This document shows, piece by piece, positions 47,091-63,741 of a stretch of 64,000 nt of DNA. The stretch is from Planctomycetota bacterium (lineage in GTDB: Bacteria; Planctomycetota; Phycisphaerae; WQYP01). Every line of letters begins with the position of its first letter. Within the stretch, counting starts at the first letter, position 1. The stretch is taken from the NCBI GenBank assembly GCA_021800165.1, contig JAJYZF010000016.1, positions 1,223 to 65,222 of the forward strand, given 5' to 3'. Under the pieces are notes generated by a model. The model was not told the origin of the DNA. It did no database searches and saw only the letters and a program-made list of their open reading frames with translations. The translations under genes and the position numbers were made by a program.

Positions 47091-48026
47091 TTACGGCAAC
47101 GTCGGCACCGTTGTCGGCGTCACCCAGCCCTGGCACCAGTTCTGCTTCCACAAATCCGCCAGCTTGACCGAAGCCGCATGCCCGTCCAGGTACGAAACAT
47201 TAATCGAACCACCATGACGGTTGATATCCAGCCGCCACATCTGCGGGTACGGTACATAGCTTGATACGCCGTAATCGCCGTTCAGGTTCGCCGGAGGCGG
47301 TGCGCTAGGCCCCCAGTAAGACGACCCCGGCTCATACCATGGCGAAGCATCCAGGTAAATACAATCAAAAAATACCGGTATTGTCGCGCTGCTCACGCTG
47401 GCGCTGCTTAGATTCGCCGGCCATGGATCATTAGCCCCCAGACACACTTCCCAGCCTGACGGCGGCGCCGGATTGTACAACCAGGCGTTAAAGCCGTAAC
47501 TGCCCACATATTTCGCCGGGAATGGATAACCCCAGCCATCCGTCCAACTTTGCGTGGAAGTACCCCAACCCAAAGACGTCCAGTTAAAAGGTTCGCTGGT
47601 GGTGGTGGATGGACACACCAGCACCGGCGCACTCTGAAAATTCACATTGTTCCAAGTCGTTTGATTCGGTTGTACGGCACTGTAGTAATTTTGCAGATAC
47701 GCCGGCCAATAATAGTCCGCCCAGGTGCCAATGGACGGATCTGTCGCCGCGGTCGGCAGCGGCTGCCACGAAATGGTCTGGCCGTCGTAATCGCTTTGGT
47801 ATTCCTGAAAAGCCGTGCCCAGTTGGCGCTCGTTAGACAGGCATACCACCGAATCCGCATCTTGCCGCGCTGCCGCCAGCGCCGGCAGCAGCAGGGCTAT
47901 CAAAATGGCGATAATGGAAATCACCACCAAAAGTTCAACCAGCGTAAAACCACGATCCCAGCGTGCCGAGGACCGCCAGAGGAGAGAATGACGCTCGGCG
48001 GAAGAATCAAATGAGCCTATTTCCAT
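47091..48026 (-). CDS. Prepilin-type N-terminal cleavage/methylation domain protein, DUF1559 (H-X9-DG) family, copy 1
   Basis: [30 protein letters not shown] after a 26-aa leader. The C-terminal half has [17 protein letters not shown] (H-X9-DG). Confidence 0.8.
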
Positions 48027-48165
48027 GTTCGTGCTCCACCAAAGCCAACATGCCGACATGCCCACCGCGCCCCTTCTTGCGCTCGTTGCCCCGATGCTCA
48101 CCCGGCCGCCGTCAAGCCAAGCTCCCCGCCGACGCGATAACGGCGGCGGGAAGCTACATATTGGC

Positions 48166-49029
48166 CTACGCCGTTCGCCGCCGCTTCAACATTAGCAGCC
48201 CCAAACCACCGAGACCAAGCAATCTCAAATTCGCCGTTTCCGGGACCGGGGTAATTTGCAAACCGGATACGGTTGCCTCGCTCCCGTATTCGGTGCTCGA
48301 TCCGGTTCCCGAATAAATGTAAGCAAGCGAAATATTGCCGTTCGCATCCGGAGCCAGAGTGAATTTGTAATAATCATTACCCGAAACCCACGCGGAGGTG
48401 TTGGCGTCGGTGTACGTGTTGACGGTGCCTGTTAGTACGGTGGCACCGGTGACGGTATAGGTGGTGTCATCCTGCCCATTTTCAACGTAGAGATTATATT
48501 CCAGCGACGGATCCAGTCCACCAATAGTCGCAAAGACTACGTTTCCTCTGAAAGGGCTGACAGTTGTCCCGTACGTCCCCATGTTACCGTTGAGCAGGTT
48601 AAAATTCACGGTCGTGGACGGACTTAAGTACGGTACGTCGTTGGCCCCATTGCTGCCAATGTATGTCCCGCTACCGCCCCCGGTTCCGGCTACGGTAAGC
48701 GTTGCACCGCTCGCACCGCCCGTTACGTTGTCAACGCCAACCCCCGTTGAGCCAGTCGTCACATTAACCGCCACAGTGTTGGTGGTACTGCCTTCCGTTA
48801 CGGTGTTCCAATAGTCTGTAGCTAAACCGATCACTCCTGCGCCACTCGCTTGGCCGCTGACAGTCGACTGGTTAGTGCCATAAAACTGCACGTCGACCAA
48901 CCCACTGGTAAACGCTGCATTGGCCGCATGGCCACCCATAGCCATCGCCGCCGCCCCGATGGCCGCCGCCCCCAGGGCCCACACCATCCCGTTGCTCTTG
49001 ACCCGTTCGGTCCCGTTGTTGGTAAGCAT
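48166..49029 (-). CDS. Thr/Gly/Asn-rich PEP-CTERM protein (variant VPET...RRR tail)
   Basis: N-terminus [33 protein letters not shown], shared with 58359..59249. C-terminus [40 protein letters not shown]. Confidence 0.8.
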
Positions 49030-49135
49030 AACACTCTCCTTATAAAAAATGCGCTTACTATCTCACCGCGATTCGCTTACCGCGATACACCGCCCGGCAA
49101 ACCGCCTCGCCTAAAACGCCATTAAACCGTGCATT

Positions 49136-49164
49136 ACTATAACACACGCCCAAGCCCGTGTCAA
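49136..49164 (-). promoter_or_regulatory. Sigma70-type promoter (TTGACA, 17-bp spacer, TATAGT) for the PEP-CTERM gene, followed by a ~100-nt conserved leader
   Basis: Minus-strand sense cTTGACAcgggcttgggcgtgtgtTATAGTaatg. The -35 lies at 49159..49164 and the -10 at 49136..49141. Conserved copies occur at 59356..59384 and 61739..61767. Confidence 0.6.
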
Positions 49165-49356
49165 GTTGCACACCCAAACCAGAGTATACCATACGAAGCC
49201 CAGCCATTGCAACCCAATTCTAACTTAAAAATTCTCGGCCCCAATTCGCACCACCGCGCCTTGACTGCCCAACATCCACCCCAACACAATATACCAACTC
49301 AACCTCGTTTCCCGTTCCCACCCGTCCTGCCATCGCCCCCCGCCGCACCGCCTAAC

Positions 49357-50722
49357 GAGATACTATCAAAAGTTGTGGACGGAGTAAAAGAGGCAGCGTA
49401 ACCTAAAGGTTGGTTTCAATGTTCTTTTTTAGGAGTACGCCACCATGAGTAATAGTATGAACGAAAACATGAAGTTGGCAATCCCCTTCGCCGGTGATGC
49501 TTTGACCGAGGTGATCGCGCAAAGCGCCAAGGAGATTCTGGCCGCCGCCGTACAGGCGGAAGCCAGACAATGGATTGCCGAACGCTCTGATCTTCGGGAC
49601 CAGCGTGGCCACCGTCTGGTGGTGGCCAACGGCTATCTGCCGGAGCGGCAGGTTCTTACCGGTATTGGGCCAGTGTCGATCAAACAGCCCCGCATCGAAG
49701 ATCGGCGTCCCGCGGAACAGCGCGAAAAGCTCAATCGCCGGATACTGCCTGCGTATCTGCGTCGCACCAGCAGTATTGATGAAGCCATCCCCTGGATGTA
49801 TCTCTATGGCATAAGCACCAACGACATGGGGGATTCGCTCAAGGCTCTACTGGGACCCGCCATTGAGCATTTATCGCCCCATACCGTCAGCCGGCTGGTC
49901 AGCCAGTGGCAAACGCAATATGCCCACTGGAACCAACGTTCTCTGGCGGATGGACAGTACGTGTATCTCTGGGCGGATGGGGTGCATTTCAATGTACGTC
50001 TGGGCGATGACAATTCCGCCTGTATTCTGGTGATTCTGGGAGCCACGGCGGATGGAAACAAGGAGATTCTGGCCATCGCCGACGGCTACCGGGAAAGTGC
50101 GCAATCCTGGAAGGCCGTGCTTCTGGACCTGAAGAACCGCGGACTGCAGGCACCAAAACTGGCGATTGGAGATGGTGCCATGGGTTTCTGGGCGGCCATG
50201 GAAGAGGTGTACCCGTCCACAAAAGGCCAGCGCTGCTGGGTGCACAAAACGCTCAATGTATTGAGCTATTTTCCGAAGAATCTGCATGGTCAGGCCAGGG
50301 ACAAGATACATCAGATTTGGATGGCGGCAACGGAAGCGGATGCCCACAAGGCCTTTGATCTGTTCGTGCAAACCTACCAGGCTAAATACCCCAAAGCAGT
50401 AGCATGCTTAGGCAAAGATCGTGAAGCGTTATTGGCTTTTTATTATTTTCCAGCAGAGCATTGGGTGCATATCCGCACCACCAATCCGATCGAAAGTATC
50501 TTTTCAACTGTGCGGTTACGCCACGACAAGACGCGGAACAATGCCAGTCGGAAAGCCTGTCTGGCGATGGTATTCAAGCTATGTCAGAGTGCCCAGAGGG
50601 GCTTTCAGAGACTCAATGGCTCGGAATTAATCCCGGAGGTATTGGCCGGAATCAAATTCGAAAACGGAGTCAAACAAATTGCCGCCTGATTGCCCCAATC
50701 CACAACATTTGACAGTAACTCC
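49357..50722 (+). mobile_element. IS256-family insertion sequence (1366 bp) with imperfect ~26-bp terminal inverted repeats and 8-bp target duplication CGCCTAAC
   Basis: IRL GAGATACTATCAAAAGTTGTGGACGG (49357..). IRR reverse complement GAGTTACTGTCAAATGTTGTGGATTG (..50722). CGCCTAAC occurs at 49349..49356 and 50723..50730. The uninterrupted target ...CCGCCGCACCGCCTAACCAT.CC.ATGCTCCTTAGCCCA... is seen intact at 42051..42088, downstream of paralog 3. Confidence 0.85.
49445..50689 (+). CDS. IS256-family (mutator-type) transposase
   Basis: 414 aa with the motifs LWADGVHFNVR, NKEILAIADG, CWVHKTLNVLSY and TTNPIESIFSTVRLR (the IS256 C-terminal signature). Confidence 0.9.
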   Translation: MSNSMNENMKLAIPFAGDALTEVIAQSAKEILAAAVQAEARQWIAERSDLRDQRGHRLVVANGYLPERQVLTGIGPVSIKQPRIEDRRPAEQREKLNRRILPAYLRRTSSIDEAIPWMYLYGISTNDMGDSLKALLGPAIEHLSPHTVSRLVSQWQTQYAHWNQRSLADGQYVYLWADGVHFNVRLGDDNSACILVILGATADGNKEILAIADGYRESAQSWKAVLLDLKNRGLQAPKLAIGDGAMGFWAAMEEVYPSTKGQRCWVHKTLNVLSYFPKNLHGQARDKIHQIWMAATEADAHKAFDLFVQTYQAKYPKAVACLGKDREALLAFYYFPAEHWVHIRTTNPIESIFSTVRLRHDKTRNNASRKACLAMVFKLCQSAQRGFQRLNGSELIPEVLAGIKFENGVKQIAA

Positions 50723-50725
50723 CGC

Positions 50726-52387
50726 CTAACCATGCCCATGCTCCTTAGCCCACTGGCCCAACTCCGATTTTGCCGGCTCATTGTTGGCACCCAGTAAAAA
50801 CATCGTGGTGCCATCCGTTTCCATCGCCTCCCACCAATGCCGCTGGCCCGTGCCCAACAACGTCGCCGCCGTTACCCCACCCCGAAACATCTTCACATTG
50901 GGGGTCACACGCCGCAGCACTTGACAGCGGGGCGGATGATCAAACGTAAACTGTGGACCGCCATACACCTTCACCGAATCCGGCAAATTCCAGTTGATCG
51001 CCACACCCGTAATCCACCCGGTATGGTCCCGCGAAACCTCCGGCATAATGCTGATTCCGCCCTGTTTGAACCGCCGCAACAGCGTGAGGTTTTGCTCCGC
51101 TGTGGCAAAACCGTAGGGCAGGCCGCCCGTATCCCAAAACGCCACCCGCACGCCGTTGGCCGCCAGATTATTCCGCACGCGCAACAGGTAAGATTCCGCC
51201 ATCGGATTGCCATAAGCCATCGGGGCCGCACGATCGGGAAGGAACTTTTTATCCAATGCCCAGTGGGCGGCGTTTTGATCGATTCGCGGCGAAAAATTCG
51301 GATCAATCAATACCCCCATGATCATACCCGACCGGCTGGCCTGCTTCACCTGGGCAAACCACGACAACCGCTGGGGAAATGGCTCATAAATACCCTGTCC
51401 ATCCGGCGGCGCCCATTGAATATACCCATGGGCACCCAGCGCCTTGCATTGGGCCACCTTTTTTTCCAGACTGGGAAATGGCCAGCCCGTGGCCGCCCAG
51501 GGATTACTGGTGGCAAACACCGGCGATTCCGGAATCTCATAACGGGCCATGAATGGCACCAGACGCTCCTGCCGATAATCATCCATCGCAATTTCCGGCA
51601 TGCCGTGGCTGTAGTCACGCAGGCGAAAGCCAAATTCGGCACTCTGGCCCTTTTCAATGGTAAAGCAACCGGAGTCCAGCCATGGACGACACTCATCGCC
51701 CCGCGTTTGCCAGTGCAACTCAAAATTGCGCAACTCCTCATCAAAATATTCCACGCACACCCCGGCGGTGCTCCGCCGGTCATAAAACATCACCAGCGAT
51801 GAATACCGGTAATAACCCAAACCATCATTGCCCACTTCATTTTGCCACACCCGCTCCCGTCCGCCGCAGCACGCATCCAGGATCGCCCCGTGCGCAGGAT
51901 ATGGCGCGGTAAATGCCGGCAGGTCAAAGTTAATGCCCCGAATCGAGAATCCGTACCCATTTTCCACGCGGATTTTGAAATCCAGATTGCGTCCGTGTTG
52001 CCGCACTCGCGCATGAATCCGCACCTGCCCCCCCGCATCCTGCCACAGTTGCTCCAGCACCCCGCCCTTTTGCCCACTGGATTTACATACGCACCGGACC
52101 GTAAAAACATCTTGCGCCAAATGCCCCTTGCTATTGATATGGTCCCCCATCGCGTGGTGCGCTTGCACACTACGCACGGCGAATCCGCGGGTCTTATCCG
52201 CCGGCGCAACGATCTGAAACTCACGCCCCGCGTGCAGCAATTGACCGGCAACGCCGCGTGTACCCGCCGCGCCGGCCGCCGCCCCCGCGATTCCCGCGAT
52301 GGCCAAAAACTTACGCCGCGAAACACCCGCCGCATCGCGTCTGGTCTCCCCCGTCCAACCGTTGCCGCACTTGTTTGCATCCATCAT
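50726..52387 (-). CDS. Tat-exported protein, paralog family member 4
   Basis: SRRKFLAIAGIAGAAAGAAG. Same blocks: GYIQWAPPDGQGIYEPFPQRLSWF, LLRVRNNLAANGVRVAFWDTGGLPY, GISIMPEVSRD and PRCQVLRRVTPNVKMFRGG. The stop codon lies inside the right IS256 target duplication. Confidence 0.85.
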   Translation of the reverse strand: MMDANKCGNGWTGETRRDAAGVSRRKFLAIAGIAGAAAGAAGTRGVAGQLLHAGREFQIVAPADKTRGFAVRSVQAHHAMGDHINSKGHLAQDVFTVRCVCKSSGQKGGVLEQLWQDAGGQVRIHARVRQHGRNLDFKIRVENGYGFSIRGINFDLPAFTAPYPAHGAILDACCGGRERVWQNEVGNDGLGYYRYSSLVMFYDRRSTAGVCVEYFDEELRNFELHWQTRGDECRPWLDSGCFTIEKGQSAEFGFRLRDYSHGMPEIAMDDYRQERLVPFMARYEIPESPVFATSNPWAATGWPFPSLEKKVAQCKALGAHGYIQWAPPDGQGIYEPFPQRLSWFAQVKQASRSGMIMGVLIDPNFSPRIDQNAAHWALDKKFLPDRAAPMAYGNPMAESYLLRVRNNLAANGVRVAFWDTGGLPYGFATAEQNLTLLRRFKQGGISIMPEVSRDHTGWITGVAINWNLPDSVKVYGGPQFTFDHPPRCQVLRRVTPNVKMFRGGVTAATLLGTGQRHWWEAMETDGTTMFLLGANNEPAKSELGQWAKEHGHG

Positions 52388-52389
52388 AA

Positions 52390-53964
52390 TTACATCCCTT
52401 TGTCTCGACCATGTTCTTTGGCCCAGGTTTCAAGCTCACCGTTGGCGTCCACACACAAAACCGGCACGCTCACGCCATCGTCTTCCAACACATCCCACCA
52501 ATATCGACCGGCCCGTTGTTCCACTTTTCCCACACCACCTCGAAACATCCGGGCGTGGGGTGTCACGCGCCGCAACACCGGATACCGCGGTGGATCACCA
52601 AATGGAAACGCCCGGCCATAATACCACCCCAGCGTGGCCCCGGTCACCCACGCTGTAAAATCTTGCGCGCCTTCTGTAATAATCATGATGCCGGCCTTTT
52701 TCCATTGATATAAAAGTGTTAAATACTGCTCCGGCGTAGTGTTGCACTGCTGGTTATAGCCGTTATAGCCGCCGCAATCCCAATAGGCTACGCTCACCCC
52801 GTTGGTCGCTAGATTATCACGCATTTTATACAAGAAGGACTGCGCTTCGGGCCGGGCCACCGCCATCGGCACCACCCGGTTTGGCACAAATTTCCGGTCC
52901 AACGCCCAATGCGCCGCGCTTTGATCGATCCGCGGAGAATACCACGGATTGATCAGCACGCCCACCGGAATACCCAACTTACTGGCCGCTTTCATCTGCA
53001 CAAACCACTCAAGTCGCTCCGGAAATGGTTCGTAATAGCCCTGCCCATCCGGCGGTGCCCATTGAATGTAACCGTTCGCCCCCAGCGACTTGCAGTAGGC
53101 CACGTCCTTGACCAGATCATTCTTCGGAAAAGGCCAGCCGCTGCTCGCCCATGGACCTGTGGTTTCATAAGGGGGAGCTTCCGGAATCCCCAGCCCAGCC
53201 ATAAACGGCACCAGCCGTTGCCGACGATAGTCATCCAGCGCCGCCTCCGGCAGCCCCTGTCGATAAGAGGTCATGCAAAAAACCACGTCGGCGGTCTTAC
53301 CCTTTTCCAATCCCAGCGTGTAACCCAAAAAGGGCTGAAAGCCCGCCGGATCGGCGAACCAGAACACGCCGGATTGGGCATGACGCAAAAGTCGGTCGAA
53401 ATATTCCACACACATACCTTCGCCGCTGCGGCTGTCAAAAAACACCGCCAGCGGCGAATACCCTCCACCCCCGCATTGACCAAAACCATGCCCACCCAAG
53501 CGCCGAATGTTGCCTCCCCAGTACGTGTCCATGACCGCAATACCCTCGCCCGGCACGATACGCAAGGGCAAACGGAAATTAATTGTCCGGATGTCGAACG
53601 CATAACCATTTTCCACCCGCAAACGCACCGTTACCCGCTCTCCCGCCGCAGCCAGTTGCGCCGGCAGCAGCGCCGCCTCCACCGGATCCCTCTTCGGATA
53701 TTGCTCGCTGCAAATGCTCACCTGCACCTGCACATGGCCGCCGACATCCTGCCACATCTGCTCCCATGCCCCCCGCCGCCCCCGGCTGGATTTGCAAACA
53801 AACTTCCTGATCTCAAAAAGTCTTGGCTCCAGATGCCCCTTCGCATCCAGCCGATCCCCCAATGGATCGTGCGCTTTGACGCTCTCCACCGCAAAGCCGT
53901 GCTGAATATCGGTGGGCGGATAAAATTGCCCCCATCCGCCGCGTCTGCTATTGGTCGTCGCCAT
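52390..53964 (-). CDS. Paralog family member 5 (divergent, no signal peptide, canonical I-I-T-E motif)
   Basis: MATTNSRRGGWGQ... has no hydrophobic signal. Same blocks: GYIQWAPPDGQGYYEPFPERLEWF, LYKMRDNLATNGVSVAYWDCGG, GIMIITEGAQD and PRYPVLRRVTPHARMFRGG. AAGGAG RBS. Separated from member 4 by 2 bp. Confidence 0.85.
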   Translation of the reverse strand: MATTNSRRGGWGQFYPPTDIQHGFAVESVKAHDPLGDRLDAKGHLEPRLFEIRKFVCKSSRGRRGAWEQMWQDVGGHVQVQVSICSEQYPKRDPVEAALLPAQLAAAGERVTVRLRVENGYAFDIRTINFRLPLRIVPGEGIAVMDTYWGGNIRRLGGHGFGQCGGGGYSPLAVFFDSRSGEGMCVEYFDRLLRHAQSGVFWFADPAGFQPFLGYTLGLEKGKTADVVFCMTSYRQGLPEAALDDYRRQRLVPFMAGLGIPEAPPYETTGPWASSGWPFPKNDLVKDVAYCKSLGANGYIQWAPPDGQGYYEPFPERLEWFVQMKAASKLGIPVGVLINPWYSPRIDQSAAHWALDRKFVPNRVVPMAVARPEAQSFLYKMRDNLATNGVSVAYWDCGGYNGYNQQCNTTPEQYLTLLYQWKKAGIMIITEGAQDFTAWVTGATLGWYYGRAFPFGDPPRYPVLRRVTPHARMFRGGVGKVEQRAGRYWWDVLEDDGVSVPVLCVDANGELETWAKEHGRDKGM

Positions 53965-54099
53965 AAGCCTACTCCTTAAGAAGGTCCGCGCCGCCCTCTA
54001 CTTTCTACTTTCACTCCTCCCGCGCAGCCACCCATTGCGCCGTCTTCCTTGGCCACGCCTGTTTACCAACTCACCTTTCTCACGCAGCGCTCCGCCAAG

Positions 54100-57000
54100 C
54101 TAATGATTTCGCACCAGTGCGATAAGCCGCACGCCATACGGACCGATGTTCAACGCAATGACATTGCCGTCCACCGGAATTGGCAGCGTTCCCAAGCTTT
54201 CGGCGTTATAAGCTTTGAATCCATTTTCTTTCAAGCCCAATGCCGCCAAATTCAACTTAACCTTAACTTGGCCCTTGATCGACCCCAGTGTGCGCGCATA
54301 GCCGCTGTTATTAAGCACCACCACCAGCGCTTTACCCAGGTCCGGTTTCAGGTAAACGCTGCATCGCGTAGCCCATCCCGCGTTAGCCGCCGGATTTTTC
54401 CGCCACCAGGGCAAAAACCGCACGTCCTTAGCCGCGATGTTCCACCAATCCACTGCGGGCATAAATATCCCGCTGTAGCCCCCGATGTCACCCCATCCCC
54501 AGATATCGTTAAGCATAAACAGTCCCATCACCATGCGGGCATTTTGCACCCGCACGCTGGCTATGCCCCCGTTCGGAAATGATTTGTTGTTGAGCACCCA
54601 GTCCACATAGCGTGAATCCATCATCGGAACCTGTCCGAACATCCGATTGCTGAACGTACAACGCAGCAGATTATCCGTCAGCGCAGCGCGAATACCGTGT
54701 GTCACCATCTTGTGCAGGATGTCCGTCCAGCCCATGAACTCGCCGTCCAGGGTAACGTTGCAGAAGCTTTGCACCGGCATGAGCAAACAGGTGGACCGAT
54801 GAACCCAGATGATGCCGTTTCTGCCGCGATGATCCAGCATCACCGCATACATCCGCCGCGCCATGCGACGCGCCGCCAGAATCGGATACGTGGGCTTGAC
54901 GCGTCCGTGGCCGGCGTCGTAGCCGAAGCCCGCCATCCGGTTGGAAGACGGCATGTTGCCCGCATCGCCGTCAATGTAAATCCCGGCCGCGGGGTAATGC
55001 GCTAAAAACTTGTTCAACTGCCATACGTAATGATCCACAAAACTCGGCGACGGATTGACATTTTCCGTGGCCCAGCCCGGAGCACTGCCAATTTGACCGC
55101 TTTCCGGAACTATTCCCCATTCCGGAGCAAACTCTTTCCACAGCGGCATCAACTTCCTGGGATTCTTTTGCGCAAACGCGCGAATGCCACAAAAATCAGT
55201 GCTCGTAAATGGACACCAGGCTCGGTAGCGCCCGGGTTCAAAGGGCTTCTGTAAGATTCCCGGACCGGGGACGAGCCACGCCGGCGAAACCGACCACCAT
55301 GAATAATCCAATTGCAAACACCGCCACGGACGGCCGATGCCCTGCCGATACCTGTCCGGCGGACTGTTGCTCCATCCACGCCATCCACGAGGCATTGCCC
55401 GTACTGGGGTGCCCATCAGCCCAAAGGCGATGGTAAAATGACGGGGCATCGTAGCCGTCTGGCCGATCACGTTCATGACTATACGCCCCCCTCCGCCCGT
55501 CACCGGTAGCACCTCCATTTGCTTATTGGGATCCGCATTGTGCCAGTACTGATCCGACTGGGCAAACCATTCCAACCCCGCGCTGGTGCCGCCCACAAAA
55601 ATATACGCCAGATACGGCATAAATGGGTGGCTCCAGCGCCGCGTTGGAAAGGCATTGCTGCGACGTGTGTCGTACTGCATAAACAAGCTATGTTGCGCAT
55701 TGATCGGCACACGCACCTTCAGCGGACCGATTTGCTCCTTGTGCCCCGCCGCAAACGCAAAGCTGCTCCACAAAAATCCGTCATAATCCACCCGCGTCGT
55801 GGCCACCACGCGGTAAGGCCCCGCATGCCCCACCGACCTTAACACCACCCGCGCCGGGCCATGGCTTACCACCTGCGCCGGACCGAAGACTACCGTCGAT
55901 TTTCCCAAAACCCAGTGCACCGGACCGGAAAGAAGCTCCTGGCCCCGGCTGACCATGGAAGTAGGCAGCGGCCCCCCAAAAAAATCGTACGCACGGCCCC
56001 ATAGGCTTACCGTCGGACCATGCGGCGTAGCGGTTAATCGGATCGGTGTCCATGGCCACAGAACCACATCCTTATCCCCGAGCTTATTGCCCATCCAGCG
56101 CGGATGCACCTTCTTAAAACTCAGGGCGGGCGTGTGAAAACCAGTCTGGGCTATACCGCTGACATAATACCTGCCCACCGGCAGATCCGAAAAATGTACT
56201 GTGGCTTTTGTCTGAACTTTTTTCCCCGACAACGCAAAAGCCTGCTGGGCCACCGTTTTTCCGGCGGCATTTTTAACCACAATACGACCCAGCCTTGGCC
56301 CCCGCCCCGGCATGACCACATTCACCGCCAAGATCGACGCCGTTTGATAGAATTTCGCGTAAATAGCCAAGTGCCTGCCGCGGCTGGCTAAAGCCCATCG
56401 CCGCGCCCCCATCTGATAAATTTTCTTGGCTTGTTCCGCTAAAACAAAGCTCTTCAAGACCGTCACTTTCGCCAGTAGACTTTTCCATGGCTTAGCCGCC
56501 AGCGGCCTGGCCTTGACTCCGGTATATGGTTCCCAATAGGCCCGGGCGATTTTCTTGTCCCATCCCAGATAAATGCGATTGCCCAAATGACGGAGAAAAA
56601 TTGCGGAATCACGCACCACACCCCGGCGCTGGCCGTTCAGGTACATCGCGTCGTACCCCTTCCGCCAGGTAATAATATAGTTATACCACTTGCCGGGACC
56701 CAGCACGCTTGCTAAATCGCGGGCCATCCTCAGCGGTGCCGTGCAGCCGATACCGGTCGGAAAGCCACTGATCAGATGGCCATGGTTGTACCACGCCAGC
56801 AGCAAGTCCCCAAACGGGTAAAATGTTTGTACCACCAGTTGCTGGGCCTTGCGGCCGCCGTTGGTATGCATCAACACCTGCAAGGCATTGCCGTTGGAGC
56901 CGTCCCAATTCACCGGCGATAGCCATAGGCTGATTGTCCCCTGACGCGGATTCAAATTGCCTTTCAATTTGTATACCAACGCATCTCTGCCATTGCGCAA

Positions 57001-57234
57001 CTCCACCGCCTTGCCGCCCTGCGGACCCGCCACAATCCGCGGATGACCAATGATTTTTACCGGAACCGGATCGCCCCCCGCAATCGTGGCCTTGAAACCG
57101 TGTGCGAAATTAAGGTATAACCCCACATCTTTACTGGAAGCCGCAGCCGAATTTACCCTGACCGCCACCGACAACGCCACCGTGAGGCCCACTACGATTT
57201 TGCCCCATGTCGGCCACCGAATTGATGCTAGCAT
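54100..57234 (-). CDS. Large secreted hypothetical protein (~1044 aa) with an N-terminal concanavalin/LamG-like region
   Basis: Signal peptide MLASIRWPTWGKIVVGLTVALSVAVRVNSAAA from the ATG at 57234 (GGAG RBS). No confident family assignment. The C-terminal half is rich in W and G, as in carbohydrate-active enzymes. Confidence 0.6.
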   Translation of the reverse strand: MLASIRWPTWGKIVVGLTVALSVAVRVNSAAASSKDVGLYLNFAHGFKATIAGGDPVPVKIIGHPRIVAGPQGGKAVELRNGRDALVYKLKGNLNPRQGTISLWLSPVNWDGSNGNALQVLMHTNGGRKAQQLVVQTFYPFGDLLLAWYNHGHLISGFPTGIGCTAPLRMARDLASVLGPGKWYNYIITWRKGYDAMYLNGQRRGVVRDSAIFLRHLGNRIYLGWDKKIARAYWEPYTGVKARPLAAKPWKSLLAKVTVLKSFVLAEQAKKIYQMGARRWALASRGRHLAIYAKFYQTASILAVNVVMPGRGPRLGRIVVKNAAGKTVAQQAFALSGKKVQTKATVHFSDLPVGRYYVSGIAQTGFHTPALSFKKVHPRWMGNKLGDKDVVLWPWTPIRLTATPHGPTVSLWGRAYDFFGGPLPTSMVSRGQELLSGPVHWVLGKSTVVFGPAQVVSHGPARVVLRSVGHAGPYRVVATTRVDYDGFLWSSFAFAAGHKEQIGPLKVRVPINAQHSLFMQYDTRRSNAFPTRRWSHPFMPYLAYIFVGGTSAGLEWFAQSDQYWHNADPNKQMEVLPVTGGGGRIVMNVIGQTATMPRHFTIAFGLMGTPVRAMPRGWRGWSNSPPDRYRQGIGRPWRCLQLDYSWWSVSPAWLVPGPGILQKPFEPGRYRAWCPFTSTDFCGIRAFAQKNPRKLMPLWKEFAPEWGIVPESGQIGSAPGWATENVNPSPSFVDHYVWQLNKFLAHYPAAGIYIDGDAGNMPSSNRMAGFGYDAGHGRVKPTYPILAARRMARRMYAVMLDHRGRNGIIWVHRSTCLLMPVQSFCNVTLDGEFMGWTDILHKMVTHGIRAALTDNLLRCTFSNRMFGQVPMMDSRYVDWVLNNKSFPNGGIASVRVQNARMVMGLFMLNDIWGWGDIGGYSGIFMPAVDWWNIAAKDVRFLPWWRKNPAANAGWATRCSVYLKPDLGKALVVVLNNSGYARTLGSIKGQVKVKLNLAALGLKENGFKAYNAESLGTLPIPVDGNVIALNIGPYGVRLIALVRNH

Positions 57235-57348
57235 TAAACGAACTCCGTTAATACACCCACTAACGACACCGAAATCCCGATGCCGCACGAACTGCCAATC
57301 AGGCACCATCCCCCCGTCTGCTGCTCACCTCTCTCGCGCAGCGCCGTG

Positions 57349-58218
57349 TTACGGCAACGTCGGCAACGGACTAGGCGTTTTCCAGCCTTCACACCAGTTT
57401 TTAGTGTAAAGCTGGGTCAGCGGCACGCTCGCGGCATGCCCATCCAGATACACCACATTGTTTACTCCCTGATGCCGATCTAAATCCAATCGCCACATCG
57501 AGGGAAATGGAGTCCACGCCGTGAGCGCGAAGCTGCCCTTTAGATCAGATGGTGGCCCATAGGTGGAAGGATCCTGATACCACGGCGAGTCGTCCAGGGA
57601 CATGCTGTCTGAAAAAACCGGCACGCTTGCCGAGCTTACGTTAATACTGGCGATATGTTCCGGCCATGGATCCCACCAGCCCACTTCCCAAGCCGGCGGC
57701 GGCCCGGGACTGTACAGCCAGCCGTTAAATCCATAACTGCCGTAGCGATAGACGTTGTCATAAAGGGGATAGCTGCTGTTATACCACGATCCAGCCGTCC
57801 ACGCTTCATTGGTGGATCCCCATCCCCAGGAAACGGTGTTAAAAGGCAGAGTTACGCTCGCCGACGGGCAAAGCAATACCGGTGGGCTTTGCGCCCCATC
57901 CGGATTGCTGCCCCAATAAGGTTCCAGCGAATGCACCCAGAAGTTCGCCGAGTAAACCCACCCCAAGGTATCCCCTTGGTTGGTGGTCACGTACATCTGA
58001 TAAGCCAGACCCAGTTGGCGCTCGTTGGACAGGCATACCGCGGTGTTGGCCTCCTGCCGAGCCGCCGCCAGCGCCGGCAGCAGCAGGGCTATCAAAATGG
58101 CGATAATGGAAATCACCACCAAAAGTTCGACCAGCGTAAAACCACGCTCCCGCCGTGCCGAGGACCGCAAGACGGGAGAACGACGCCCAGTGGAAAAGTC
58201 AAATGCGCCTATTTCCAT
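57349..58218 (-). CDS. Prepilin-type N-terminal cleavage/methylation domain protein, DUF1559 family, copy 2
   Basis: [32 protein letters not shown], then [17 protein letters not shown]. About 80% identical to copy 1. Confidence 0.8.
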
Positions 58219-58358
58219 GTTCGTGCTCCAGTAAAGCCAACATGCCCACACGCCCGCCGCGCCCGTCCTTGTGCTCGTTTCTCCGATGCTCAACCGGCCG
58301 CCGTCAAGCCAAGCTCACCGCCGACGCAATAACGGCGGCGGTGAGTTCTCTTACCAGC

Positions 58359-59249
58359 CTACGCCGTTCGCCGCCGCTTCACCAGCAGCATCCCCAAACC
58401 GCCCGCCGCCAGCAATCCCAGCGCCCCCGGTTCGGGAGTCGCGATAACTTGGAACCCATCCAGTGCTGCTCGAGAGCCACTGTTTCCAACCGCAACTGTA
58501 ATATTCAACGTGGTTCCTGTTATTCCCGTAAATTCCACGTAATTACCGACGGTAGAGGCCGTGGCAAGGGTAAAGGTACCAGAATCGACGAAACTATTAT
58601 TCGGATTACTGCTACCCGTATTACTAAGCTTAACATTGCTTAGCGTAGCTCCATTAACCGTGTAATCGGCCACGTCCGTATAGCTACTATTGGCCGAATT
58701 TACATAAAGGATCACGTCATACGGCGTGGTTCCGGTTCCAGCAATGCTTGTTGGAAGACTGCTCACCGTCACTGTCGCGTCCGGACCGTAGGTAGCGCTG
58801 TAATTGCCCGACCCAGTCGACGGGTAGCCGACATCAAGGTAGCTCTCTTGCAGATATACGTTCTGTTGCTCTTGGGTTGAAATTCCATTGGACGGCAACG
58901 CTCCCGAACCCACCAGCCCGGGTGCCCCGAAGGAAAGCAAAGTGCCGCTGGCGGAACTGCCATCGCTCAAGACCAAGTTGCCCACATTATTACCGGCTCC
59001 CGGATAATTCCCGCTGCCATTGGCCGGGTTATCCACGTTGTTCCAGTTGGCCTGAGCCACGTAACCCGCCGTTCCGGTGACCGCTGTTGTTTGGGTACTT
59101 GTAGTGTGTTGCCAGAAATGTACGCCTAGCATCGCCGCATTGGCCGCCTGGCCACCCATAGCCATCGCCGCCGCCCCGATGGCTGCGGCCCCCAAGGCCC
59201 ACACCATCCCGTTGCTCTTGACCCTCTCGGTCCCGTTGTTGGTAAGCAT
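58359..59249 (-). CDS. Thr/Gly/Asn-rich PEP-CTERM protein
   Basis: N-terminus [33 protein letters not shown], identical to 48166..49029. C-terminus TPEPGALGLLAAGGLGMLLVKRRRTA. Confidence 0.8.
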   Translation of the reverse strand: MLTNNGTERVKSNGMVWALGAAAIGAAAMAMGGQAANAAMLGVHFWQHTTSTQTTAVTGTAGYVAQANWNNVDNPANGSGNYPGAGNNVGNLVLSDGSSASGTLLSFGAPGLVGSGALPSNGISTQEQQNVYLQESYLDVGYPSTGSGNYSATYGPDATVTVSSLPTSIAGTGTTPYDVILYVNSANSSYTDVADYTVNGATLSNVKLSNTGSSNPNNSFVDSGTFTLATASTVGNYVEFTGITGTTLNITVAVGNSGSRAALDGFQVIATPEPGALGLLAAGGLGMLLVKRRRTA

Positions 59250-59355
59250 AACACTCTCCTTATAAAAAATGCGCTTACTATCTCACCGCGATTCGCTTAC
59301 CGCGATACACCGCCCGGCAAACCGCCTCGCCTAAAACGCCATTAAACCGTGAATC

Positions 59356-59384
59356 ACCATAACACACGCCCAGGCCCGTGTCAA
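59356..59384 (-). promoter_or_regulatory. Sigma70-type promoter (TTGACA, 17-bp spacer, TATGGT) plus conserved leader for PEP-CTERM gene 58359..59249
   Basis: Minus-strand sense cTTGACAcgggcctgggcgtgtgtTATGGTgattc, a conserved copy of the 49136..49164 element. Confidence 0.55.
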
Positions 59385-59583
59385 GTCGCACCCTCAACCA
59401 GAGTACACCACACGAAGCCCAACCATTGCAACCCAATTCTCCCCCCCCAAAAAAACTCTCAGCCTCAGTTCGCACCACTGCGCCCTGGCCGCCCAACATC
59501 CACCCCAATACAATATACCAACCCAGCCCCGCCTGCCAAGCCCCTCCGCGGAAAATCAGGGCGGCGCGAAGCTACATATTGGC

Positions 59584-60426
59584 CTACGCCGTTCGCCGCC
59601 GCTTCACCAGCAGCATCCCCAAACCGCCCGCCGCCAGCAACCCCAGCGCCCCCGGTTCGGGAACAGCATCGAAGGCGATCCCGCCCGTGACGGCTTGGTA
59701 GTTGGTTGAGGCCACGGTATCAGCCAGCGTGAACACATCGCCCGCTGCCGCTCCGACGATGTCGAAATGGTAGAACGCATATTGTGTGTTGTACACCCGA
59801 TTGTCCAATGTGGATGCCAGCATCGTAACCGATCCGGGGCTGTAAACGCCCGTGGCCACGTCGCCGCTAAGCAAATCCACCGCCCCGCCATTGTTGGAAA
59901 TAGTTCCCCCAATGTCGTCCAGGACGCTGAACTCAAAATTGCTCGGAGCGCCCGCACCAAGCGTAATCGTCAGCAGTGTGGCAACATTTCCGGGGACGTT
60001 ACTTATATTATTGGTAGTTGTGCCAGAATTGTTATATGTGCCAACATGGTACTCAGTACCATTAATGGTCATGTTCGGATAATTAACCCCCTGGTAGCCG
60101 TAGTTTCCCTCCAAGGCCACCGTGGCCCATGAGACGGGGTTGCTAAACGTGTTGGTGAATGTGCTGTTGGAACTGCTTGGGGTATAGGTACCGTTACCCG
60201 ACCCGGTGGCGGTTGGAACAGTGCCGTAAAAGATGTAACCAAGATCGCCGGGCGGCGGCACCGTAGCGGACTGAGTGGTGAAGGAAGTAACGCCCGCCGA
60301 GGTCGCCGTCATAGTGGCCCGCGCCACGTGCGGCGTTGCCGCCAGCACCGCCGCCAGCGCCGCAGTCCCAATCCCCAGCAACAAAAAGTTGGCTTTGACC
60401 CTCTCGGCCCCGTTGTTGGTAAGCAT
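59584..60426 (-). CDS. PEP-CTERM protein (Thr/Gly-rich)
   Basis: N-terminus MLTNNGAERVKANFLLLGIGTAALAAVLAATPHVARA. C-terminus VPEPGALGLLAAGGLGMLLVKRRRTA. The upstream leader is conserved, but the -35 region is replaced by the 3' end of the upstream gene's module, so it is probably co-transcribed. Confidence 0.8.
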   Translation of the reverse strand: MLTNNGAERVKANFLLLGIGTAALAAVLAATPHVARATMTATSAGVTSFTTQSATVPPPGDLGYIFYGTVPTATGSGNGTYTPSSSNSTFTNTFSNPVSWATVALEGNYGYQGVNYPNMTINGTEYHVGTYNNSGTTTNNISNVPGNVATLLTITLGAGAPSNFEFSVLDDIGGTISNNGGAVDLLSGDVATGVYSPGSVTMLASTLDNRVYNTQYAFYHFDIVGAAAGDVFTLADTVASTNYQAVTGGIAFDAVPEPGALGLLAAGGLGMLLVKRRRTA

Positions 60427-60564
60427 AACACTCTCCTTATAAAAAATGCGATTACCATCTCACCACGATTCGTTTACCACGCTACATCGCCCGGCAAACC
60501 GCCTCGCCCGAAACGCCATTAAACCGTACATTACTATAACAGCGGCGCGAAGCTACATATTGGC

Positions 60565-61632
60565 CTACACCGTTCGCCGCCGCTTCACCAGCAGCATCCC
60601 CAAACCGCCCGCCGCCAGCAACCCCAGCGCCCCCGGTTCGGGAACAAAGCTAAAATTGCTGATACTTTCGTAGGATTCGGCCCCGCTGTTACCGCCCGTC
60701 AATCCCACGTAGCCGGTAGTTGACCCCAGCAGGCTCGTGACGCTTTCCGGCAGGGTATAGGTGTAGCTGAAGCTACCGGTCCCGTTCTGGTTAAACCCGC
60801 CAGTAGCCTGTGTCGCACTGAAAGTCAGGCCGTCGGCCCCATTATACGAAACGGTAACATTGATTGGAGTCTGGTAGACATCGAAATTAACGCTTCCGGT
60901 ATTGTTATAGTTGCCGCTGCCGGCACCTGAGCCTGCATTCGGATAGGTGACCGCCTGCTTGATGCTGCCGCTGGCGTTGCTGTAAGCTACCGTTAGCCCG
61001 TATTGTGCGGTGGTGGTATTGATGCCAATACCCACACTGCTGGTAGGCGCAATGCCGCTGTTACCAATGTAGCCGCGAGGGCCTCCATCCCAGCCGCCGT
61101 TGGTGGTGGTCAACAAGCCCGTCCCCGCACTGTTGTCCTGCACCACCAGGAAGAAGCCCAATCCTGGATTTTGATCCTTCCCCGTGCCTAAAACGGTGGT
61201 CGGCGGGGAGTTGGCGGATGGCATCTCCCACACAAAGCTCGCCGTCCATGCCCCGCCCACGCCCTGCTTGGCATCAAACCATACCGAGGAATTCTCTCCT
61301 TCCGTCGTGCGGTAGCTCAGATCGCTAACCTCGCCGCCACTGTTGACAATGGTCGGCGGCACCCAGGAGTTAAACGCGTTGGTGGTGCTTTGTTCATAAT
61401 TGGTGGTAACGGTGCCATTATCGTAGGAGAAAACGTTGTTGGTGGTAGAGTTCGGGTATTCGTAACTTGCAGCAGTACCGAAGTCTGTGGAGGTGGTGTC
61501 CGTACCGAAGCCGGAAAGATTGGCCCGCGCCCCGTGCGGCGTTGCCGCCAGCACCGCAGCCAGCGCCGCAGTCCCAATCCCCAGCAACACAAAATTAGCT
61601 TTGGCCCTCTCGGTCCCGTTGTTGGCAAGCAT
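60565..61632 (-). CDS. L-type-lectin-like domain protein with PEP-CTERM sorting signal
   Basis: N-terminus MLANNGTERAKANFVLLGIGTAALAAVLAATPHGARA. Lectin-like blocks: NLSGFG, VFSYDNGTVTTNY, WFDAKQGVGGAWTASFVW, GLGFFLVVQDN, SVGIGI, GSVNFDVYQTPINVTVSYNG, YVGLTGG. C-terminus VPEPGALGLLAAGGLGMLLVKRRRTV. Confidence 0.8.
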   Translation of the reverse strand: MLANNGTERAKANFVLLGIGTAALAAVLAATPHGARANLSGFGTDTTSTDFGTAASYEYPNSTTNNVFSYDNGTVTTNYEQSTTNAFNSWVPPTIVNSGGEVSDLSYRTTEGENSSVWFDAKQGVGGAWTASFVWEMPSANSPPTTVLGTGKDQNPGLGFFLVVQDNSAGTGLLTTTNGGWDGGPRGYIGNSGIAPTSSVGIGINTTTAQYGLTVAYSNASGSIKQAVTYPNAGSGAGSGNYNNTGSVNFDVYQTPINVTVSYNGADGLTFSATQATGGFNQNGTGSFSYTYTLPESVTSLLGSTTGYVGLTGGNSGAESYESISNFSFVPEPGALGLLAAGGLGMLLVKRRRTV

Positions 61633-61738
61633 AACACTCTCCTTATTAAAAATGCGATTACTATCCCACCGCGATTCGTTTACTGCGCTACATCGCCCGG
61701 CAAACCGCCCCGCCCGAAATCATGTTCAACTGTGCGCC

Positions 61739-61767
61739 ATAATAGCACACGCCCAAGCTCGTGTCAA
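61739..61767 (-). promoter_or_regulatory. Sigma70-type promoter (TTGACA, 17-bp spacer, TATTAT) plus conserved leader for PEP-CTERM gene 60565..61632
   Basis: Minus-strand sense cTTGACAcgagcttgggcgtgtgcTATTATggcg. Confidence 0.6.
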
Positions 61768-62001
61768 GGCCCCTCGGAAAAATCACCATACACCTGCACC
61801 ACCACCCCAAAAAGCCATTTCAAACCGATCCCCCTAAAAAAATTTTGGCCCTAATCCGCACCACCGAGTCATGGCTCAAACGAAAGCCGCGACGGCTCCA
61901 TACCAACCGCTTGCTCCAGCCCGGTCCCGAAGACCTTCGGCACCCGCCCGCAACGTCGGTCCACCGCAGCGCCGCTCCAGTCTCCCGCCGCCGTAGCCAT
62001 C

Positions 62002-63741
62002 CTACTCTCTACCTTCCCCTTTCTCGCGCCGCGTCGCTGGCGTCAAAAGCATCAGCCCGGCCCCAAGCACCAGAAGCATCCCGGCGGATGGTTCCGGCAC
62101 AGGAACCCAGTTATATGCTAATGCGTAGGTATCATTCGCGGAAGCCTCGGACGTGCTCCCCACTTTTAACACCTGCAAATCATAGAGGCCGGCGCTCAAA
62201 CCGCCCAGATAAAGTTGCTGCACATTATCAATGGAGCTATCACTTAGCCCAACAATGGTACCCGCCGCGTTAACCAAAGCCAAATCCAGATTGTTAATCC
62301 CCGTCGCACCGGTATTGAGATTCCAGACCAGCGTGGCAGTAAGCGTGTAGGTTGTTTTTGACGATCCGCCCAGATCAAAAATGTAGTGGTCCACCCCATC
62401 CGTGGTCGCACTACTGGCAATGGATGCCTTATTCCATCCTTCCAGCGTACTTTCCGGCGTGGTGTAACTGCCGTCAAAGCTAAAAGTAGGTCCTGAGAAA
62501 GGTGCCTGTGCCTGGCTGGTTTCAGCGCTGTAGCCGTGTTCCCCAGCCACCAGATTCTCGTAGGAATTATACGCATTTACCACGCCCGATCCATATCGCG
62601 GGTCCAGCGGCGTTTGCGTGGTTGCGGTCGGGGCCAGATACGTTTCGGTATTCACACCTCCGCTGACCGTAACCGTATAGTTATTGGTCCACCCCTGCGG
62701 CTTGGATGCCCCATTAAGCAGCAGCGCTTTAATGGTACGAATATCTGTGGCGTCAGGTTGCGTGCCCGTCCCACCAAAGCCATCCATACCCGCCTGAGCT
62801 ATCAGCGCCGCCACGCCCGAAACCATCGGCGTGGTAAAGCTGGTGTACGGGCCTGGGCCAGGCGCGGTGATATCCGGCTTACTTCGTCCATCCGTGGTCG
62901 GACCAACCCATGCCGCTGAGGCTCCGCTGGTCGGACTAAACACGCCGTTGGTTTCCGTACCCGAATAGGCCGCCACCGCCAGACCGTTGTACATGGTAGA
63001 GGGCGCGTTAATGTAGCTGGAACCCGTGGTCGTTCCGTCACCAATGGAGCTAACGTAGAGCGTGTTATAAGTGGAGGCGTTACTATCGAAATAGGACGTG
63101 CTTACGCCAGGGTCAATATAGCTCTGATTCACAATTAACGGTGATACCGCCGCCGGCGTGCCCGCAGGCGTACTGGCGGCTTGACTGGAAAAAATATAAT
63201 AGTTGATGTACCCATCCGCTTCCAAGTTATAAATCTGCGATACCCCAGGCGCCACTCCGGAATGAGAACCATCGCTATAAGACCCATTCCCGTAGAACAC
63301 CGTCGCCACAAGGTTGGCATGGCTGGAATAATCAGCGCTGTCATAGCTGGAACTAACCGTTCCGCTTTCATCCATAAACGTAAATTTAGAAGGTGATTGA
63401 TTCACCGAGGAGGACGTTGGATTCACCTCATACTCGCCCGGGCCAACCATAGCCTCTATCGTCGCCACCGACACGCCGCTGCCATTGATGTTTGGCGCAA
63501 CTTGCTCCAACTGCGGCAGCCCGATCTGGTCATAAAACAGGGCATTGGGATTGGAATTACCCCACACCGTGGAGCCGCCGTAAGTCACAGCCGCCGCTAT
63601 CAATAGCGCCGCCCCACCGTGCCGCCACCCCCCACCCGTGCGGCAACGCCGCGATACAACCGTCGGCCAAAGGCTCTGTCGGCCGCTCATCGCGAAATTA
63701 AATTTCTGCCCCGCTAAAGAAAATTTCAAACCCTGTAACAT
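62002..63741 (-). CDS. Subtilase-like (S8 family) serine peptidase with PEP-CTERM sorting signal
   Basis: Ser-region DITAPGPGPYTSFTTPMVSGVAALIAQ. C-terminus VPVPEPSAGMLLVLGAGLMLLTPATRREKGEGRE. The start is placed at the ATG at 63741 (AGGAGG RBS, then signal MLQGLKFSLAGQ...RRCRTGGGWRHGGAALLIAAAV). Confidence 0.7.
   Translation of the reverse strand: MLQGLKFSLAGQKFNFAMSGRQSLWPTVVSRRCRTGGGWRHGGAALLIAAAVTYGGSTVWGNSNPNALFYDQIGLPQLEQVAPNINGSGVSVATIEAMVGPGEYEVNPTSSSVNQSPSKFTFMDESGTVSSSYDSADYSSHANLVATVFYGNGSYSDGSHSGVAPGVSQIYNLEADGYINYYIFSSQAASTPAGTPAAVSPLIVNQSYIDPGVSTSYFDSNASTYNTLYVSSIGDGTTTGSSYINAPSTMYNGLAVAAYSGTETNGVFSPTSGASAAWVGPTTDGRSKPDITAPGPGPYTSFTTPMVSGVAALIAQAGMDGFGGTGTQPDATDIRTIKALLLNGASKPQGWTNNYTVTVSGGVNTETYLAPTATTQTPLDPRYGSGVVNAYNSYENLVAGEHGYSAETSQAQAPFSGPTFSFDGSYTTPESTLEGWNKASIASSATTDGVDHYIFDLGGSSKTTYTLTATLVWNLNTGATGINNLDLALVNAAGTIVGLSDSSIDNVQQLYLGGLSAGLYDLQVLKVGSTSEASANDTYALAYNWVPVPEPSAGMLLVLGAGLMLLTPATRREKGEGRE

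Follow-up and report, generated by a model that had tools for sequence, protein, structure and literature searches.

Probable concerted evolution of the shared ends of a small tandem PEP-CTERM gene family in a Planctomycetota bacterium

Introduction

PEP-CTERM proteins, which are secreted and sorted to the cell surface, are abundant in environmental and biofilm bacteria, and the origin and regulation of their repertoires are little known outside the Proteobacteria. Here, we focused our attention on a set of four PEP-CTERM genes, termed A to D, in a 64,000-nucleotide (nt) stretch of DNA from a Planctomycetota bacterium (assembly GCA_021800165.1, contig JAJYZF010000016.1, positions 1,223 to 65,222; hereafter, the window). 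An original prediction, made from the sequence alone, held that these genes are near identical at both ends and unrelated in between, and that such an arrangement would permit their bodies to be shuffled like cassettes. The question raised by the locus is how neighbouring genes come to share promoter, leader, signal peptide and sorting tail around bodies that do not resemble each other. Our answer, which we hold with good confidence, is that the ends evolve in concert, through gene conversion or unequal recombination, within a tandem PEP-CTERM family of this uncultured bacterium that is very small and restricted to its lineage.

Shared Ends around Unrelated Bodies

All four minus-strand open reading frames (ORFs) were found where they had been predicted. 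Gene A (48166-49029; 287 amino acids, aa) has an N-terminal module of the A/B type, a Thr/Gly-rich body and a degenerate tail, VPET...LKRRRTA. Gene B (58359-59249; 296 aa) has the same type of N-module, an unrelated body of its own and a canonical PEP-CTERM module (58359-58437). Genes C (59584-60426; 280 aa) and D (60565-61632; 355 aa) both have C/D-type N-modules, the first with its own body and the second with a lectin-like one, and both end in a PEP-CTERM module that, together with a 23-nt flank, spans 59561-59665 in C and 60542-60646 in D. Genes D, C and B lie side by side, and A is located 10.2 kb farther along.

The 5' module common to the four genes consists of a putative sigma70-like promoter with a TG-extended -10, a leader of approximately 105 nt, AAGGAGAGTGTT followed by the ATG, and the start of the signal peptide. 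The Shine-Dalgarno sequence of the module is a strong one. That the module is shared could be confirmed by simple counting: ATAAGGAGAGTGTTATGCTT and GGCGGTTTGCCGGGCG have exactly four occurrences each in the window, one ahead of every gene, where 0 would be expected for ATAAGGAGAGTGTTATGCTT. When up to three mismatches were allowed, GGCGGTTTGCCGGGCG returned the four exact copies and one match with three mismatches, which is at chance level (2.3 expected). In A, the non-coding part of the module (49030-49164, minus strand) opens with TTGACA-17-TG-TATAGT (49136-49164; 11 of 12 promoter positions matched), followed by the leader, of approximately 105 nt, down to AAGGAGAGTGTT, which scores 166 bits with the leader covariance model. 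The corresponding parts in B (59250-59384, minus) and D (61633-61767, minus) open with TTGACA-17-TG-TATGGT (59356-59384; 10/12) and TTGACA-17-TG-TATTAT (61739-61767; 11/12), respectively, each followed by the leader, and the D copy is the most diverged of the four. In C (60427-60541, minus), only the TG-extended -10 (TGTTATAGT, 60533-60541) and the leader are present. Hence, the claim of a consensus promoter holds in a promoter scan for A, B and D, as TTGACA-17-TG-extended -10, with the qualification that the -10 of B reads TATGGT, but does not extend to C, which has no -35. The reason proposed for this loss is borne out by the sequence, as the stop codon of D and its 23-nt flank (60542-60564) directly abut the TGT-TATAGT of C, so that the 5' module of C is fused to the 3' module of D.

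Nucleotide alignments (blastn) set the limits of the shared 5' ends. Genes A and B are 90% identical from -277 to +117 relative to the ATG, with an identical core of 125 nt, and within the window the B module from -101 to +23 is identical to that of A. Identity of A/B to C reaches 91% (-114 to +32) and to D 83-84% (-135 to +32), and C and D are 92% identical from -86 to +112. The encoded putative signal peptides, of the Sec type, were recognized by inspection, with R9 and K11 as the charges of the n-region, an h-region rich in Ala, Gly and Leu, and an AxA-type site (ANA/A, ARA/T and ARA/N, with the slash marking the site).

At the other end, B, C and D are 97.5-99% identical over their last 81 nt (blastn), which includes a 37-nt stretch of the tail that is the same in all three, and 25 of the 26 third-codon positions of these PEP-CTERM tails are identical. 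A 3' module common to three of the four genes was therefore correctly predicted. The VPET tail of A is indeed a variant one, with PET for PEP, and is homologous to the others at the DNA level (76-78% nt identity to the B, C and D tails). The flanks were less well described: C and D share 23 nt, not approximately 40, and the flank of A is not the divergent one, as GCCAATATGTAGCTTC follows A, C and D, whereas B has a different 17 nt, meaning that A and B had been interchanged. Regarding family assignment, B, C and D score 22.0, 24.2 and 23.8 bits, respectively, against TIGR02595, all above the cut-off of 16, and 18-20 bits against Pfam PF07589, just under its cut-off of 20.7. Gene A gave no match to TIGR02595 at E <= 0.01, and a weak 20-bit match to the C-terminus of NF038129.

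The bodies enclosed by these ends show no blastn match to each other, blastp E-values above 0.07 and hhalign probabilities below 1%. The ends are therefore far more alike than the bodies (5' modules 83-99%, 3' modules 97-99%, bodies without a match), and their identity reaches synonymous and non-coding sites, in agreement with the proposal that the architecture is more than ordinary paralogy. The description of the bodies as unrelated needs one correction, as the body of D is not an orphan: it is 47% identical in aa sequence to that of 44979-46067 and 40% to that of 43831-44898, two minus-strand genes whose ends differ from those of D. The homology begins at the signal-peptide cleavage site and stops just short of the PEP motif, and 44979-46067 has a different signal peptide and a different PEP-CTERM tail. 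The other relative, 43831-44898, also of the D-type lectin-like kind, ends after the body (...KKFSFHSGT) with no PEP-CTERM tail, so that one family at one locus has members with and without the sorting signal. The AlphaFold model of D, which is of low confidence (predicted local distance difference test, pLDDT, 47), matches legume-lectin folds at E of about 1e-6, a match that we take as a hint; the model of C is likewise of low confidence (pLDDT 43). Orthologues of C were found in other lineages (P0002 at 47%, P0003 at 44%) and no homologue of the body of A was found. Body homologues of C and D are very rare, in full-length searches that covered 8000 word-sharing candidates and in which even the paralogues within the window were missed.

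Further copies of the modules were also sought, and none came to light. The leader covariance model detected no extra copy in the window or in the fetched loci, and an exhaustive search with an N-module profile among 1.84 billion representatives returned only four protein clusters, namely those of A, C, D and an orthologue of B (B'). A separate homologue search with a 38-40 aa N-module profile gave nothing at E <= 0.01. Moreover, the pattern GGCGGTTTGCCGGGCG-N40-60-AAGGAGAG, searched for in genome and metagenome contig collections lacking this organism, gave chance matches only, one in Angelakisella and one in an unrelated GC-rich contig.

Ends Cluster by Genome Rather than by Orthology

Two sister-lineage contigs carry orthologues of the genes studied here: D' on L009 (79% aa identity to D) and B' on L024. 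The PEP-CTERM tails are 97-99% identical at the nucleotide level among B, C and D, and 91% between B' and D', and orthologues compared between lineages reach 78-81%. Likewise, the leaders of B and C are 90% identical versus 77% for B and B', and for the remainder of the signal peptide identity is 95% in the pair C and D versus 73% in the pair D and D'. Moreover, B' and D' have one and the same 3' flank, unlike every flank in the window, and residue 9 is Arg in all four window copies and Lys in both sister copies. That is, the ends cluster by genome, not by orthology, and where orthologues exist (B-B', D-D', C-P0002) the bodies evolve independently and vertically. Two further homologues combine ends of different histories: P0002, the orthologue of C, has retained the MLTN start and a homologous leader next to a different PEP-CTERM tail, and P0007, a distant homologue of D, has a module-like tail (VPEPGVLGLLAVGGLGMVLMGRRRR) and an unrelated N-terminus. 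Such discordance indicates that ends have moved between genes.

Under the concerted evolution proposed here, neighbouring copies would exchange sequence by non-allelic gene conversion and by unequal homologous recombination, which would keep their ends near identical at the DNA level. Ends would be transferred between neighbouring genes and then kept alike, and the family would share one set of expression and sorting ends in front of and behind mature bodies that are unrelated, or diverged beyond recognition.

The same data bear on the possibility that A to D are ordinary paralogues, in which purifying selection alone, with no recombination, keeps promoter, leader, signal peptide and sorting signal alike. 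As would be expected from selection, 87-92% identity is retained between lineages from the Shine-Dalgarno (SD) sequence to codon 13 and also in the 3' half of the leader, and even distant orthologues keep (T)4-6..AAGGAGAG.GTTATGCTTACCAA. However, the nearly complete identity of third positions in the tails and of the 23-nt non-coding flank is beyond the reach of protein-level selection, paralogues of one genome resemble each other more than orthologues of different genomes do, and the histories of the ends conflict with those of the bodies. Altogether, selection acting alone appears quite unlikely to account for the shared ends.

Variation among Assemblies Is Confined to the Modules

By exact-protein look-ups, the modules or the whole locus were recovered from ENA, JGI and NCBI, in at least nine assemblies that are independent of each other. 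Some of these are near-clonal: along 3000 nt, from D through C to the start of B, two independent assemblies differ from the window at exactly two positions; these lie 8 nt apart in the leader of B and both match the state found in C, and a third assembly displays a D-like combination at the same two positions. In addition, an A..T leader haplotype is common to JGI and ENA assemblies. Variation between assemblies is thus limited to the modules and each time copies the state of a paralogue. Several contigs also carry hybrid 5' modules, with at least three different crossover intervals: in L003/L016, the B-type upstream region is joined to A and the 10.2-kb block is missing; in L012 and L014, the A-type upstream region, with its IS256-family element, is joined to B; in L013, the region upstream of A and A-type synonymous sites to +66 are joined to B, which places the crossover within +67 to +101; and in L007 an A/B-type leader end is joined to C. 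L012 was also considered as an excised circle or a tandem copy, and this was rejected, as another copy of IS256 forms its right end and leads into unrelated DNA.

Variation that is confined to modules and copies paralogues, together with ends that cluster by genome, makes recombination between homologous ends the best explanation. Such recombination appears real in an evolutionary sense, and possibly ongoing. The repeated ends would themselves be recombination substrates, which could delete, duplicate or re-promote whole gene blocks.

As metagenome assemblies are involved, it was necessary to consider whether the shared modules or the structural variants arise from collapsed repeats or chimeric joins. 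MEGAHIT (k141) produced the recombinant contigs, the two contigs of ERZ27237285 amount to the reciprocal swap of a mis-resolved repeat, those of ERZ27237044 begin exactly 141 nt ahead of the first copy-specific base, and contigs running through the multi-copy IS256 element have inconsistent outer flanks, all of which would fit an artefact. For the modules themselves, however, that explanation is refuted by a four-gene mosaic that is identical in at least nine assemblies from three sources. As for the joints, two single-nucleotide polymorphisms in the leader split the identical stretch into pieces of at most 63 nt, so that there are 141-mers specific to one copy, by which a k=141 graph should keep the copies apart. 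In addition, the L013 crossover falls in an identical stretch of 35 nt, the A..T haplotype recurs in assemblies of both JGI and ENA, and the comparison between lineages is independent of hybrid joints. An assembly artefact is consequently very unlikely to be the answer to the locus as a whole. The hybrid contigs are likely real, although unproven, and could still be assembly chimeras.

Bodies Stay in Place while Ends Are Homogenized

The cassette idea went further in proposing that the ends would permit an exchange of bodies. In its programmed form, resembling antigenic variation, the fixed ends would be the handles by which bodies are passed through an expression site, so that the surface repertoire varies. 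Homologous ends around unrelated bodies are what such a system would have, hybrid junctions between copies do occur in some assemblies, and in the sister lineage a D-type body stands directly upstream of a prepilin-type gene, that is, in the slot held here by A or B. Nevertheless, all four copies are complete ORFs with an SD sequence and ATG, three of the four with full promoters and the fourth with an extended -10, so that no promoterless silent cassettes exist among them. The repeats are direct, not inverted, and no invertase or site-specific recombinase lies near the genes, the sole mobility gene being the IS256-family transposase. Moreover, the four N-module clusters and the lack of further leader copies in the window argue against a sizeable repertoire of bodies. 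The programmed cassette systems (pilE/pilS, vlsE and vsp-type) are characterized by silent donor cassettes, a sizeable body repertoire and a dedicated recombinase, none of which is seen here. Finally, no strain or assembly was found in which a body has been exchanged between two intact slots; only ends have been exchanged or a block deleted. The ends are therefore homogenized across fixed bodies, which goes against the proposed shuffling, and a programmed cassette system seems very improbable.

Several observations weigh against concerted evolution as a complete account. The segment from the SD sequence through codon 13 stands out between lineages, its 87-92% identity comparing with approximately 80% in the bodies; since 5' conservation is also seen between lineages, purifying selection on RNA or DNA contributes and gene conversion is not the whole story. 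The comparison between lineages itself rests on one sister lineage and short contigs. The bodies are compositionally alike (Thr/Gly/Ser/Asn-rich) and, instead of being unrelated, could be homologues that have diverged to an extreme degree. The hybrid contigs stem from metagenome assemblies of short reads and could be chimeric joins, and the two from ERZ27237285 form the exact reciprocal pair expected from a mis-resolved two-copy repeat. The argument for concerted evolution nonetheless stands without the hybrid joints, because the comparison between lineages does not make use of them.

Expression Signals and the Leader as a Possible Regulatory RNA

From their near-identical promoters, co-regulation of the four genes is plausible, and the shared signals suggest that they are probably co-expressed and follow the same route of secretion and anchoring. 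A distal promoter-like element, TTGGCA-16-TG-TATATT (59512-59539, minus), lies approximately 270 nt upstream of B and is homologous to the promoter region (63789-63816) of the subtilase-like PEP-CTERM gene 62002-63897 and to a sister-lineage copy. This second conserved element, GGGGCTTGACAGGCG-N10-TGGTATATTGT, is thus found directly upstream of 62002-63897 and, at approximately 270 nt, upstream of B, of B' (L024, 695-730) and of A, where the copy (approximately 49285-49300) has no -35. It looks like the remnant of a different 5' module, placed ahead of the main one. The sigma-54 motif TGGCAC-N5-TTGCW, searched for with up to two mismatches, gave 30 matches in comparison with 43 expected, none of them in the four upstream regions.

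Downstream, GC-rich hairpins with no U-tract follow A (48120-48155, minus; -27.4 kcal/mol, z = -3.95) and B (58314-58345, minus; -24.4 kcal/mol, z = -4.9), kept by compensatory changes (CCCGCCG/CGGCGGG in A, CACCGCCG/CGGCGGTG in B). Matching hairpins follow D' (L009, 1105-1140) and B' (L024, 1855-1890), with a sister-lineage fold of -29.9 kcal/mol, and z-scores after A, B, D' and B' are in the range of -4 to -5. A terminator check of the locus found no intrinsic terminators with a U-tract; the hairpins after A and B are probably either terminators, which may be factor-dependent, or mRNA-stabilizing 3' stems. As no such hairpin follows C or D, and no hairpin or terminator is present between D and C, these two genes are probably co-transcribed.

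The conservation of the 5' module may also have a cause of its own, namely that it is kept mainly as a cis-regulatory RNA, whose leader hides the SD sequence and AUG until released by temperature or a bound factor. This reading complements concerted evolution and does not exclude it. In the predicted consensus fold, a fourU-like U-run pairs with AAGGAGAG, and GGUGAGAU with AUGCUUACC, so that both the SD sequence and the AUG would be buried. Folding predicts a local hairpin, more stable than shuffles, in A/B (-12.4 kcal/mol, z = -3.2), C (z = -2.3) and D (z = -1.7), which the sister lineage has retained. In the consensus structure of five leaders, 93% of cells are paired, and five pairs are changed on both sides, compared with 2.1 in shuffles (6/500) and 0-2 in slid controls. 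Translational control by this hairpin would, moreover, account for the conservation of synonymous sites in the first codons, even between lineages. On the other hand, there are five sequences only, and the structure was derived from those same five; the hairpin over the SD sequence is not predicted in the distant orthologues L008 and L022; folding of the whole leader is not distinguishable from shuffles in three of the four copies; the leader has no match in Rfam 15, in which the window matched three tRNAs only; and a U-rich tract ahead of the SD sequence is also a common translational enhancer. We therefore regard a regulatory leader hairpin as a reasonable but tentative reading, and conservation mainly as a cis-regulatory RNA as possible, though on the unlikely side.

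RNA thermometers of the fourU and ROSE types are the known elements closest in appearance. As in these, the leader is predicted to form a weak hairpin, with many G-U and A-U pairs, in which a U-run pairs with the SD sequence immediately before the start codon. It differs in that Rfam has no match for it, none of the genes is a heat-shock or virulence gene, and the hairpin is not conserved in distant orthologues.

Comparison with Known Systems

Concerted evolution of tandem bacterial families by gene conversion is well known from tuf, rrn, the opa genes of Neisseria and the 5' regions of vsp/vlp in Mycoplasma. As in these families, paralogues within a genome are closer than orthologues, polymorphism is patchy and matches paralogues, and deletions between direct repeats appear to occur; unlike in them, homogenization is here confined to short terminal modules for expression and sorting.

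Genes B, C and D resemble the PEP-CTERM/exosortase cargo families (TIGR02595, PF07589) in having a C-terminal PEP motif, a transmembrane helix and a basic cluster, and a putative N-terminal signal peptide. Haft et al. (2006; PMC1569441) described PEP-CTERM tails that cluster by species, which they read as rapid paralogous expansion, and long upstream regions with a shared sigma-54 element (-24 GG/-12 GC, 20-220 nt ahead of the start) and activator site (PrsR), in Proteobacteria only. Bodies with little homology, many copies per genome and long upstream regions with a shared DNA element are thus features of PEP-CTERM cargo families that have their likeness at this locus. The differences lie in the sigma70-like extended -10 promoter and 105-nt leader, with no -24/-12 motif, in the DNA-level identity at both ends, including the signal peptide and 3' flank, and in the PET of gene A.

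The closest functional analogue is provided by the erp genes of Borrelia burgdorferi (ospE/ospF/elp), in which an upstream homology box joins one promoter, leader and localization sequence to many unrelated mature parts (PMC10016077). The erp genes recombine frequently and encode co-expressed surface proteins (PMC10016077; Marconi et al. 1996, cited therein). The likeness lies in a conserved module of promoter and leader peptide that is attached to mature parts without kinship and bears signs of recombination; it is one of analogy and not of membership, as there is no sequence relationship. Moreover, erp products are lipoproteins encoded on spirochaete cp32 prophage plasmids, at allelic positions on many replicons, and have no conserved 3' sorting module, whereas the genes studied here form a chromosomal tandem array of four with both ends conserved.

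Genomic Neighbourhood

The DNA between B and A holds a prepilin-type gene, three large genes that match no family and, on the opposite strand, the IS256-family transposase. Genes A and B are each trailed by a prepilin-type gene with an N-methyl motif (H-X9-DG-like; Pfam N_methyl), at 47091-48101 and 57349-58293, respectively, both on the minus strand. As these two are paralogous, A with its neighbour and B with its neighbour represent two copies of a segmental duplication; the two units are 86% identical across 407 nt comprising gene ends and the intergenic region (blastn). The prepilin-type genes are also mosaic, with 86-87% identity in the first approximately 300 nt, 78% in the last 51 nt, and a middle that is only approximately 70% identical or unalignable, which is the same pattern of conserved ends and diverged body as in the PEP-CTERM genes. 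In addition, five paralogous minus-strand genes of 524-573 aa are found at 38558-40273, 40295-42016, 42063-43781, 50726-52387 and 52390-53964, several of them with a twin-arginine-like start (RRxFL); the two members scanned have no Pfam or NCBIfam match. Since two of these paralogues lie within the 10.2-kb B-unit and three beyond A, the duplication exceeds the PEP-CTERM genes alone.

The IS256-family (Mutator) transposase (49445-50689, plus; Pfam Transposase_mut, 1.5e-63) is located between the B-unit and the region upstream of A. The element is multi-copy in this organism, with variant copies having other flanks in L011 (10560-10860) and L012 (10221-10792). Contig breaks fall at its copies, as do inconsistencies in the neighbourhoods of the A- and B-units in other assemblies. 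On the other side of one copy, two NCBI genome assemblies contain a further PEP-CTERM gene, called at 246 aa, for which the longest ORF in L011 is 259 aa.

Several PEP-CTERM proteins are in fact encoded in this genome. Besides B, C and D, which pass TIGR02595, tails were recognized by inspection or weak family matches in 44979-46067 (LPEPG...), 46100-47083 (VPEPG...) and 62002-63897 (VPEPS...). Together with the H-X9-DG-like prepilin-type genes, the abundance of PEP-CTERM genes hints at an affiliation of the PVC type. Reading of window ORFs and a Pfam scan of 20 window proteins revealed no exosortase-like protein.

Internal repetition was observed elsewhere in the window as well. A 621-aa protein is made of five tandem repeats of approximately 100 aa (...WxITINGxGFG...VTSWTxxQIV...), and the same repeat ends the neighbouring subtilase gene, which is apparently split into overlapping ORFs (17161-17967 and 16371-17258) and separated from the repeat protein by an IS4-type DDE transposase (window 12093-13958, 16371-17967 and 14612-16240, minus). 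Moreover, a large glycosyltransferase gene (8529-11774, plus) contains an internal tandem duplication at 9500-9700, in a coiled-coil-like linker, where the motif LKDQIQAANLAAEQLQRDHT.ES.K is present in two copies and a third, partial one.

Conclusions

Concerted evolution of tandem families is a textbook process, and the Borrelia erp genes are a near precedent for the architecture, so that the finding is illustrative rather than surprising: the locus is not a new kind of system, but a tidy example of a known evolutionary process. A bolder interpretation would be that the ends form a portable set for expression, secretion and anchoring, actively transplanted onto new ORFs in a bacterial form of exon shuffling, with a leader that acts as an undescribed switch occluding the SD sequence and AUG. 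We consider this doubtful, with a small chance of being correct; if true, new exosortase cargo would be created in a manner akin to exon shuffling, and the leader would coordinate expression of PEP-CTERM cargo outside the Proteobacteria.

At the locus studied here, it is the targeting ends, namely promoter, leader, signal peptide and exosortase sorting tail, that behave as units, homogenized and moved between neighbours. For exosortase cargo of a lineage outside the Proteobacteria, the locus thereby offers candidates for promoter and leader, and the same repeats may drive the gain and loss of a 10-kb gene block at the strain level.

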